This document shows positions 30,046 through 61,120 of a stretch of DNA of 64,000 nucleotides, in pieces. Made by a program: the position numbers and the translations under genes. Origin of the DNA: Candidatus Bathyarchaeia archaeon (lineage in GTDB: Archaea; Thermoproteota; CALKCG01; B24); assembly GCA_038870975.1 (NCBI GenBank), contig JAVZJD010000001.1:576001-640000 (forward strand), in the 5' to 3' direction. How positions within the stretch are numbered: the stretch's first letter is position 1; each line of letters opens with the position of its first letter. The notes under the pieces are model-generated. The model did not search any database. It saw nothing but the letters and a program-made list of their open reading frames with translations, and was not told the origin of the DNA.

Positions 30046-31197
30046 ATGAGTGCAAAATGTACAGTTTTAGAATTGATCTTCGGAGTGATCGCCTTAGATG
30101 ATAAGATGAAGACCATAGACTATATACTCTTTCCAAACAATCCAGTAGAGTTGGCGGAGAGGCTTTACACCATGGAGGCTGGAGGAGTTGTAGATGAATT
30201 GGTAAAACTCGTTGAGAGGCTTAAAAGCAAGGGGTTCAAGTCTTTCATAGTAGAGCGTGAGCCATCAGCACGTTTTATACGAGAACGTTTAAACGTTGAG
30301 ACTGTAGTTGAAAGCCCGAGCACGATTGGGAGAATTGTTAGAAGAGAACTTGCATCTAAGGCATTAGAACTTGGATTTGTGAAAAATAGGGGCGAATATT
30401 TAGATGTTGTTCAAAAATCTTTAGACCTATTGGCAAGGAGAATTATAAGGGAACGGAGTGGGAGAGGAGACGTATATGTTATCCAGACGATACATGCACT
30501 AGAAGAGCTTGATAAAACGATAAACCTATTCTACGGACGGCTACGAGAATGGTATGGACTGTACTTCTCAGAGTTAAGCGATGCTGTGGAAACCCCTAAG
30601 GAGTATTTTAAAATAGTGTCTGAAATAGGTTGGAAGGAAAATATCAATATTGAAAGTTTGAGTAAAATTGGAATAAGCAAGAAGACGGCTTCAGCTGTTC
30701 TCGACGCTTTAAAAACATCTATAGACGTTGAAATGGATAGGCGGGACCTTGAGGAAATACAAGCAGTAGCTTCAACCGTTTTAAAACTCGTAAATCTTAG
30801 AGAGAGGCTGGAAAAATACGTGGAGGAAAGAATTAAAGAGATCTCTCCCAATCTATACGCATTAGTCGGACCGATATTGGCTGCTAAACTAATAGCTCAA
30901 GCAGGAGGCTTAGAAGCTCTGTCTAAAATGCCATCAAGTACAATCCAAGTGTTGGGGGCTGAAAAAGCCCTGTTTAGAGCCTTAAGAACTGGGTCGAAGC
31001 CTCCAAAGCACGGGCTCATATTTCAACATCCACTTATAAGGCAGAGTCCTAGGAAGCTTAGAGGAAGAATATCTAGAGTTTTAGCCGCTAAACTATCTAT
31101 TGCTGCTAGAATAGATGCATTCTCGGGGAAAGATGTTAGCAACAGGCTTAAGGAGGAACTTAACAAGAGGATTGAAGAAATTCTAAAGCAAGATTAG
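30046..31197 (+). CDS. nop5: Box C/D sRNP protein Nop5 (Nop56/58)
   Basis: RLREWY, PSSTIQVLGAEKALF, PKHGLIFQHP. Confidence 0.95.
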   Translation: MSAKCTVLELIFGVIALDDKMKTIDYILFPNNPVELAERLYTMEAGGVVDELVKLVERLKSKGFKSFIVEREPSARFIRERLNVETVVESPSTIGRIVRRELASKALELGFVKNRGEYLDVVQKSLDLLARRIIRERSGRGDVYVIQTIHALEELDKTINLFYGRLREWYGLYFSELSDAVETPKEYFKIVSEIGWKENINIESLSKIGISKKTASAVLDALKTSIDVEMDRRDLEEIQAVASTVLKLVNLRERLEKYVEERIKEISPNLYALVGPILAAKLIAQAGGLEALSKMPSSTIQVLGAEKALFRALRTGSKPPKHGLIFQHPLIRQSPRKLRGRISRVLAAKLSIAARIDAFSGKDVSNRLKEELNKRIEEILKQD

Positions 31198-53994: not shown

Positions 53995-54103
53995 TGGCGG
54001 GCCCGGCGGGAGTTGAACCCGCGACCACCGGGTTACTTCAGTAATTTGGGGCATTCTTCTTACTTTAAAAGCCCGGCACTCTACCATTCTGAGCTACGGG
54101 CCC
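53995..54103 (-). tRNA. tRNA-Lys(UUU) with a 32-nt BHB intron at 37/38 (intron 54034-54065); CCA encoded
   Basis: Full cloverleaf GGGCCCG...CGGGCCC-G-CCA and anticodon stem CCGGG/CCCGG. BHB: CUUU/GAAG helix, UAA bulges, AGUAA/UUACU intron stem. Confidence 0.96.
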
Positions 54104-59754: not shown

Positions 59755-60159
59755 TTGGCTTTAGAGCTAGAAGTATGGTTTATGGGTTATAGTGGTAGGA
59801 AAACTAGGGATTTTTTAGACTCCCTTAAGAATAATCATATAGAGCTCCTTGTCGATATTAGAAGATTCCCTACTTCTAAAGTGGAAGACTTTAGAAGGGA
59901 TGTATTGGCTGAACTTCTTAGACGCGAGAACATAGCATATTTATGGTTAGGCGACTTGCTTGGGGGTTATAGACATGGAGGATTTGAAAAATACATGGAG
60001 ACAGATGACTTTAAAAAAGGACTGGATATATTAATTGGGGAAATCTCTAGAAGAAGGATTTGCATAATGTGTCTTGAACGCAATCAGAAATACTGTCACA
60101 GACGTTTCATAGCCGAAGCCTTAAAGAAGAGGGGTTTTAAAGTGATAGGAATACCGTAA
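59755..60159 (+). CDS. DUF488 family protein
   Basis: GYS, LVDIRRFP-x-S, LGG-x-R, MC-x-E...CHR. Confidence 0.85.
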   Translation: MALELEVWFMGYSGRKTRDFLDSLKNNHIELLVDIRRFPTSKVEDFRRDVLAELLRRENIAYLWLGDLLGGYRHGGFEKYMETDDFKKGLDILIGEISRRRICIMCLERNQKYCHRRFIAEALKKRGFKVIGIP

Positions 60160-60199
60160 TCGAAACTCTTAATTAGCAGAAAAAAGAATAAACTTGAAT

Positions 60200-60264
60200 G
60201 GCGAATGAAGATAGGATGATTTACAGAGCGTAGAGCTATGAAGCCAGACGGGCGGACTGACGCC
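60200..60264 (+). ncRNA. Box C/D methylation guide sRNA (predicted target 16S rRNA C1402, E. coli numbering)
   Basis: Terminal stem GGCG/CGCC; C box ATGAAGA, 12-nt guide, D' CAGA, short hairpin, C' ATGAAGC, 12-nt guide CAGACGGGCGGA, D box CTGA. Confidence 0.85.
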
Positions 60265-60292
60265 TTCCACATGTCGTTGCAAATAATCGTCA

Positions 60293-61120
60293 CTAAAGCT
60301 CTTCTATCAGTTGCTCATAAAATGATAGATGCTTATTCGAATCTGCGTTGACAAACAATCTTCCAGAGCCTTTTTCATTAAGGTCCCCTATGAACGTGTA
60401 AAAGCGCCCTTTCAATCTTTCAGTCTCTACCCTAATACTCGGTCTAATTTCTTCAAAGCTAAAACTTGCGAGGATTGATGGAATATAGCCGAGCACGATT
60501 ATTCTACCATTTTTCATAAAAGCTCCAGCACCCATACCGCACCCACCTTTTATAAGTATAGTGCCGCCAATCATATGGATCCCTGGAAAACCGCCAACAT
60601 CACCATCAACCATGATCAGTCCGTTCTTCATTTTATAGCCTATATTCCAACCAGTTTTACCGTGAACCACTATAGTTCCTCCCCTCATGCCGAAGTTTTC
60701 ACCTCTATAAGCCCCTCCTAGAAAGTCTCCCACATCACCGTAGACCTCTATAGAGCCGCCTTTCATTTTAGCCCCTAACCATGGTCCAGCGGAGCCTTCT
60801 ATTATAATCTTACCACCTCTCATGGCTTCACCAAATCCTATGCCTGCTATTCCTTTAATTCGTATTATACCGCGGCTCATCTCTCTACCGATTCTCCTAA
60901 CTTTTGAGAAGTCTCCGATAAATTCAAGCGTAGTTTCTTCAGCCTCTCCAACTTCCTTTATCTTAAACAGCTCTTCCAAACGCTTCCTTTTATTTCCCTC
61001 GTAGACTTCAACGTTTAAGACCTCCGACAATTGCTTCTCTTCAAATAATTCAGGTTTTAAATTATCCGCTAATATTGGAAGCTTAAAATCGTAAGCTGGG
61101 GTTAACTGATAGATTTTCAA
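60293..61120 (-). CDS. fwdC: Formylmethanofuran dehydrogenase subunit C
   Basis: GxGxxM-x-GG beta-helix repeats; operon with fwdA and fwdB. Confidence 0.92.
   Translation of the reverse strand: MKIYQLTPAYDFKLPILADNLKPELFEEKQLSEVLNVEVYEGNKRKRLEELFKIKEVGEAEETTLEFIGDFSKVRRIGREMSRGIIRIKGIAGIGFGEAMRGGKIIIEGSAGPWLGAKMKGGSIEVYGDVGDFLGGAYRGENFGMRGGTIVVHGKTGWNIGYKMKNGLIMVDGDVGGFPGIHMIGGTILIKGGCGMGAGAFMKNGRIIVLGYIPSILASFSFEEIRPSIRVETERLKGRFYTFIGDLNEKGSGRLFVNADSNKHLSFYEQLIEEL

Follow-up and report, generated by a model that had tools for sequence, protein, structure and literature searches.

A box C/D sRNA of a Bathyarchaeia genome with a D guide predicted to direct 2'-O-methylation of 16S rRNA C1402

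The window, i.e. the whole stretch of 64,000 nucleotides that was analysed, belongs to contig 1 of the genome of a hot-spring Bathyarchaeia archaeon (G000, family f1; 1.85 Mb, 92.9% complete). In this window, a DUF488 gene (59755-60159, + strand) and a gene with a GXGXG motif that ends at 60293 (- strand) converge on a gap of 133 nt, which contains an element of about 65 nt at positions 60200-60264 of the + strand (G000:C1:636200-636264), with the DUF488 gene upstream and the GXGXG-motif gene downstream. A 65-aa antisense ORF (60096..60293) spans the element. As read from the sequence, the element presents a complete archaeal box C/D arrangement, in the order GGCG-A-AUGAAGA-UAGGAUGAUUUA-CAGA-GCGUAGAGCU-AUGAAGC-CAGACGGGCGGA-CUGA-CGCC, and the symmetric architecture, terminal stem, two 12-nt guides and hairpin between the D' and C' boxes that an earlier note on this DNA had described were all found in place.

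The terminal stem is formed by GGCG (60200-60203) and CGCC (60261-60264), which pair over 4 bp. The C box, AUGAAGA (60205-60211), has a single departure from the RUGAUGA consensus, an A at position 5, and is followed by the D' guide, UAGGAUGAUUUA (60212-60223), which is orphan or decayed, and by the D' box, CAGA (60224-60227). The last A of the D' box and the ends of the 10-nt linker GCGUAGAGCU form an internal 3-bp hairpin (A-G-C/G-C-U, loop GUAGA; 60227-60237) that closes the C'/D' motif and is present in both the MFE and the centroid folds. The C' box, AUGAAGC (60238-60244), the D guide, CAGACGGGCGGA (60245-60256), in which G60252 is the N+5 nucleotide, and the canonical D box, CUGA (60257-60260), complete the arrangement. 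Both spacers are exactly 12 nt long, the GA dinucleotides of the C and D boxes are intact, and the D' and C' boxes retain GA while their other positions are off consensus.

Upstream of the element we identified a putative promoter (60161..60175, + strand), composed of a BRE-like CGAAAC followed by the TATA-like CTTAATTA (60168-60175). The TATA-like box ends 24 nt before the RNA, and the centre of the BRE/TATA-like element lies some 28 nt upstream of the 5' end, at the distance expected for an archaeal BRE/TATA element; the earlier note had placed the TATA-like sequence about 25 nt upstream. The sequence CGAAACyCTTAATTA is kept in the four orthologs of the same genus, and an A/T-rich box is found at a similar distance in other families; the sRNA may well be transcribed independently. 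The DUF488 gene lies directly upstream of the sRNA in every f1 ortholog for which the flanks were read; such synteny is specific to the family and is lost in f12.

The strict full-architecture pattern matched at only two places in G000 (1.85 Mb), whereas three Markov-shuffled controls gave no match, and a relaxed scan gave 11 matches as compared with one or two in the controls. No Rfam family matched the element at gathering thresholds. The best candidate among the curated families, the Pyrococcus-type sR2 (RF01139), scored 17.3 bits against a cut-off of 42 bits, with similarity restricted to the boxes and a different guide, and was rejected.

Conservation provides the strongest evidence for the sRNA. 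BLAST recovered the element in three MAGs of the same genus and two of the same family, and weakly in one other family. When a covariance model built from eight copies was used to search 151 genomes of the phylum, orthologs were found in at least ten families, with strong matches in six of seven genomes of f1, all 15 of f12, both genomes of f28 and four of five of f17, as well as in at least one genome each of f35, f26, f8, f9 and f19. In other families the matches reached E values of 1e-13 to 1e-19, with different flanks. The order to which f1 belongs has three further families, represented by nine MAGs (79-95% completeness); these contained no strong ortholog, and the weak covariance-model matches found in them were discarded, as they resembled other sRNAs.

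The paired positions were examined in an alignment of 25 orthologs. In the terminal stem, 99% of the cells were paired, and double-sided changes (G-C to U-A and C-G to A-U) occurred in two of its four pairs. When the two Watson-Crick positions of the k-turn were added to the stem, 96.7% of the cells were paired, with double-sided changes in three of six pairs. The covariation score of the alignment was not reached in any of 500 shuffles, and the pairing collapsed when the partners were displaced by one to three columns. Position 5 of the C box and position 2 of the D box formed A-U in 19 sequences, G-C in two and a non-standard U/U or U/C in four, a covariation that explains the non-consensus AUGAAGA. 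Genus g2 and family f28, which have U or G at C-box position 5, carry CCGA as the D box. Among the orthologs, position 2 of the D' box is A, U or G and its GA is kept, and the internal hairpin is extended to 4 bp in G006 (AGCC/GGCU). The D guide does not vary within f1, in contrast to the D' guide, which drifts and includes a 1-nt insertion.

These results bear on the possibility that there is no functional RNA at this position, and that the boxes arose by chance in the intergenic region or the DUF488 3' UTR, or are part of the 65-aa antisense ORF. The boxes are indeed short and partly degenerate, the ORF spans the element, and the folding z-score (MFE) is -0.8, a value that is uninformative, as expected for C/D RNAs. 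However, the full pattern was absent from the controls, the orthologs are recovered across families whose flanks differ, their paired positions covary, and the 1-nt indel among close relatives would shift the frame of the 65-aa ORF, which counts against that ORF and breaks any reading frame. We regard such an explanation as extremely improbable; conservation has effectively refuted it, and positions 60200-60264 (+) almost certainly correspond to a real RNA gene.

The 16S rRNA gene of this genome (G000:C1:504336-505972, minus strand) contains CCGCCCGUC once, at nt 1505-1513, equivalent to E. coli 1399-1407 in standard E. coli numbering; the E. coli sequence as aligned by Dennis et al. (2015; PMC4644070) is consistent with this. 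The GACGGGCGG portion of the D guide is complementary to this segment over nine contiguous Watson-Crick base pairs, with positions 2-10 of the guide paired and positions 1, 11 and 12 unpaired (numbering starts at the D box). According to the N+5 rule, G60252 lies opposite nt 1508, the equivalent of C1402, with which it forms a G-C pair; the complementarity and the nucleotide proposed in the earlier note were thus recovered in the 16S rRNA of the same genome. In a duplex-energy scan this duplex, at -21.1 kcal/mol, was the best in either rRNA, followed by -17.2 kcal/mol in 16S and -15.4 kcal/mol for the best site in 23S, and 2 of 60 composition-matched shuffled guides (3%) reached the same energy. 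A score tolerant of mismatches and G:U pairs was equalled by 16% of the shuffles, which is not significant alone and makes the match on a single sequence suggestive rather than decisive. Since these two measures gave 16% and 3%, we relied on conservation of the guide.

All 30 parsed orthologs carry GAYGGGCG followed by two bases and CUGA or CCGA, with one substitution in the core in each of G101 and G143, and in all 30 the register puts a G opposite C1402. Guide position 8 alternates between C and U, generating C-G1405 or U:G1405, several lineages have a C at position 11 that pairs with G1408, and the D guide of G087 pairs with 16S at 12 of 12 positions. The invariance of the 16S target makes target-side covariation impossible; the changes observed in the D guide are of the kind expected for pairing with an invariant strand. 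C1402 is in contact with the codon in the P site, and very few rRNA modifications other than its ribose methylation are common to bacteria and eukaryotes. Considering the anatomy, the duplex energy, the conserved register and the sRNP proteins described below, we consider it likely that the sRNA guides 2'-O-methylation of 16S C1402, as the earlier note proposed.

A different target for the D guide of a genuine C/D sRNA would be the 23S rRNA near the A loop. Two candidate sites were considered: nt 2699-2710 of the 23S rRNA of this genome, where N+5 falls at approximately E. coli 2554, and the CGCCYAUUA segment that directly follows the A loop on its 3' side and fits the f12 orthologs. In G000 the A-loop site ranks second by the mismatch-tolerant score, with seven Watson-Crick pairs, two G:U pairs and one mismatch over positions 2-11. 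In f12, where the D guide has U at positions 8 and 11, pairing with 23S CGCCCAUUA involves eight Watson-Crick pairs and one G:U, as compared with seven and two on 16S, and this segment lies 32 nt upstream of a strong 23S target of the f12 D' guide, a spacing typical of dual guides. The fit and the spacing together make a 23S target a real possibility in f12. In f1, in contrast, the corresponding 23S site reads CGCCUAUUA, and the C at guide position 8 leaves a broken duplex (x:||||:x|:xx), as opposed to nine Watson-Crick pairs on 16S. Moreover, no 23S site is more stable than -15.4 kcal/mol, against -21.1 kcal/mol for 16S, and the register over the A loop is lost in other families and is missing from the best 23S duplexes by energy. 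A 23S target in place of C1402 appears improbable for the sRNA studied here, and 16S C1402 is retained as its predicted target. That the f12 guide fits CGCCCAUUA about as well as the C1402 segment suggests that the target may toggle between the two rRNAs.

The D' guide of the sRNA gave no convincing target in the rRNA or tRNA of its own genome, as the earlier note had anticipated: its score was equalled by 72% of the shuffles and its best duplexes were weak, at about -8.9 to -10 kcal/mol. The weak match to AAGUCGU (1492-1498, helix 44) that had been put forward for it did not hold, since the 16S rRNA of this genome reads AAGGCGU at that position and the proposed target is absent. Matches to tRNA-Leu(GAG) and tRNA-Ala(GGC) were rejected, as they contained mismatches and were lost in variants of the same genus. 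Nucleotides ~1588-1594 of this 16S rRNA (E. coli 1492-1498) are AAGGCGUAACAAGG, as opposed to AAGUCGUAACAAGG in G024, G087 and E. coli; a G occupies the place of U1495, a normally conserved nucleotide that pairs with U1406 in helix 44.

The f12 and f28 orthologs have GACGAUGGUCUC or GACGACGGUCUC as D' guide, which forms 10 bp with 23S UAGACCGUCGUG, within a pairing region that corresponds to E. coli 2586-2597, and its N+5 nucleotide is a C of 23S aligned with E. coli 2590. By arithmetic from the equivalence of U2552 and yeast U2921, E. coli 2590 would correspond to yeast Cm2959. The D' guide GACGAYGGUCUC at L009:1502-1566 (G024), together with those of other f12, f28 and f35 orthologs, shows the same 10-bp match to UAGACCGUCGUG. 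On this 23S site the D' guide of G000 forms seven Watson-Crick and three G:U pairs out of 12 positions, with a mismatch at N+5, and looks like what is left, after decay, of an ancestral guide for 23S. The D' half probably no longer directs methylation and may still have a structural role as the other half of the RNP.

The proteins of such an RNP are encoded in the genome. The Nop domain of nop5 (PF01798, 251.6 bits, above cut-off) was found at positions 30499-31176 of the + strand (G000:C1:606499-607176), i.e. in the same window as the sRNA, as previously reported. A fibrillarin gene (PF01269, above cut-off) is present at G000:C2:668838-669497, and two L7Ae-family proteins (PF01248, above cut-off) are encoded elsewhere on contig 1. 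Adjacent nop5 and fibrillarin genes are the common archaeal arrangement; here the two genes lie on different contigs and are not adjacent. Taken together, the features of an archaeal box C/D sRNA that can be read from sequence were found: the boxes, the terminal stem, the spacers, a guide paired at N+5 (for the D guide only), conservation and the core proteins.

The following mechanism can be proposed. Held together by the GGCG/CGCC stem, the C and D boxes would fold into a k-turn, and the C' and D' boxes, closed by the 3-bp hairpin, into a second one. L7Ae would bind both k-turns, and a Nop5 dimer would bridge them and place fibrillarin. The 12-nt D guide would then pair with 16S 1399-1407 (E. 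coli numbering) during small-subunit assembly, and fibrillarin would 2'-O-methylate the nucleotide opposite the fifth guide position, C1402, at the P-site and decoding centre.

Guides for the homologous nucleotide are known outside archaea as well. The box C/D snoRNAs snR70 in yeast and SNORD43/U43 in human and plants guide 2'-O-methylation of the homologous 18S cytidine, and they differ from the G000 sRNA in being longer, in having degenerate C'/D' boxes and in associating with four proteins. The assignment of U43 is documented in Arabidopsis (PMC11542601), and Table 2 of this 2024 review tabulates Cm1369 of P. abyssi 16S as equivalent to E. coli Cm1402, yeast Cm1639, human Cm1703 and Arabidopsis Cm1645. 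P. abyssi shares with our proposal the target nucleotide and an RNA-guided mechanism; it belongs to a different phylum (Thermococcales). In bacteria, RsmI (with RsmH) adds the 2'-O-methyl group to C1402, a universally conserved nucleotide (PMC2831307 and PMC5053481). RsmI is a stand-alone protein enzyme that uses no guide RNA, unlike the route proposed for G000, and a search of the G000 genome (92.9% completeness) revealed no homolog of it.

The closest published guides are sR25 of Pyrobaculum (Pca) and sR35 of T. tenax (Tte), whose D guides, like that of the G000 sRNA, pair with the C1402 segment of 16S. Both are listed at 16S C1389*, the asterisk denoting a mismatch at the modified position, and C1389, an alignment position, corresponds to E. 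coli C1402 by the offset A1395 = A1408 used in the paper (Dennis et al., 2015; PMC4644070). The D guide of Pca sR25, ...GACGGACGGA-CUGA, is one base off that of G000. In Pyrobaculum and Thermoproteus an A lies opposite the C at N+5, which has been interpreted as non-methylating, while in G000 the pair is G-C; in addition, their D' guide targets 16S C1349 (alignment numbering), whereas that of G000 is orphan.

The corresponding guide in Pyrobaculum, with its conserved N+5 mismatch (sR25:C1368; Lui et al., 2018; PMC6009581), indicates that pairing at the C1402 site need not mean methylation. In line with the proposal made for sR25, for which the pairing itself was argued to be beneficial, the G000 sRNA could act mainly as an assembly chaperone on 16S 1399-1407, with methylation absent or incidental. 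The existence of both Pca sR25 and Tte sR35 at this site fits such a role, as does the fact that only one guide is intact in the G000 sRNA. On the other hand, the N+5 pair is a Watson-Crick G-C in G000 and in the 30 parsed orthologs, the spacer has the canonical 12 nt, fibrillarin is encoded, and an Nm is known at the C1402 site in both Pyrococcus and eukaryotes. We consider a chaperone role without directed methylation unlikely and favour guided methylation of C1402 as the function of the sRNA.

As these reports show, C1402 is not new as an archaeal target, and guides for the same site are already in the literature. The earlier note, which mentioned only RsmI in bacteria and snoRNA guidance in eukaryotes, implied a novelty that the published archaeal equivalents (PMC11542601, PMC4644070, PMC6009581) do not allow; of its interpretation, the C1402 guide sRNA is upheld, while the helix-44 target of the D' guide and the implied novelty are not. 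The duplex of the G000 sRNA with the C1402 site is a cleaner Watson-Crick one than those of the published crenarchaeal guides and involves no new mechanism. In the literature searched, no paper named both 'Bathyarchaeota' and 'box sRNA', and the G000 sRNA is the first such guide that we can point to in Bathyarchaeia. It adds one sRNA gene to the annotation of Bathyarchaeia genomes, and comes from an uncultured lineage that keeps a dedicated C1402 guide and in which crude motif scans found few C/D candidates. A dedicated guide whose register is held across many families supports the idea that Cm1402 is under broad selection and is introduced by machineries that differ between domains.

Three further published, RNA-seq-supported sRNAs (PMC4644070) resemble the G000 guide. 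Sac-sR122 of S. acidocaldarius, MKAsR114 (Mka-sR114) of M. kandleri and MmasR106 (Mma-sR106) of M. maripaludis contain GAUGGGCG, with two bases between it and a D or D' box; its register matches that of G000, and all three form U:G1405 where G000 has C-G1405. In Sac-sR122 and MKAsR114 the guide occupies the D' position of sRNAs otherwise unrelated to that of G000. Additional file 1 of Dennis et al. (2015; PMC4644070) lists Sac sR122 and Mma sR106 as 'NP', i.e. with no predicted target. By our reading, Sac sR122 (11 bp) and Mma sR106 (8 bp), with one U:G each, would pair with the C1402 region in the methylating register, and both probably belong to the C1402 target class. The string GACGGGCG was not found in the supplement of Dennis et al. 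(2015; PMC4644070). A pattern search for a C or C' box, guide and box in 401 genomes of the phylum gave matches in 73, and in one family all 15 genomes contained a 22-nt string identical to that of Sac-sR122.

The one element of this analysis with some novelty is the wider pattern, in which we infer an ancestral dual guide for the 16S P-site and the 23S PTC, guide toggling, and orphan guides that fit C1402. Tentatively, and with more doubt than confidence, the sRNA may descend from an ancient Thermoproteota dual guide for 16S C1402 and the 23S PTC (E. coli 2590/yeast Cm2959), whose D guide can toggle between two similar sites, 16S CGCCCGUCG and 23S CGCCCAUUA, through C/U changes at positions 8 and 11. 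If this were true, C1402 guides would be far commoner in archaea than published target lists show, and the lack of a prediction for Sac sR122 and Mma sR106 would stem from lists that penalize G:U pairs. Cm1402 would then be near-universal, with RsmI as its source in bacteria and guide RNAs in the other two domains.

Several other features of this genome were observed. The 16S rRNA gene (1637 nt) has an AT-rich insertion of 139 nt at nt 141-279 with respect to the 16S of G024 and G087, possibly an intron of the rRNA or else an expansion segment. In the window, a tRNA gene at 53998-54103 (- strand) spans 106 nt, as compared with a model of 71 positions, and is probably intron-bearing. By crude scans, the number of C/D candidates in G000 is low for a thermophile-associated lineage. 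Further plausible C/D sRNA candidates are located on contig 1 at G000:C1:1022732-1022781(-), 1022848-1022906(-), 702837-702897(-), 255709-255761(-) and 214906-214956(+), the first two of them being 67 nt apart.
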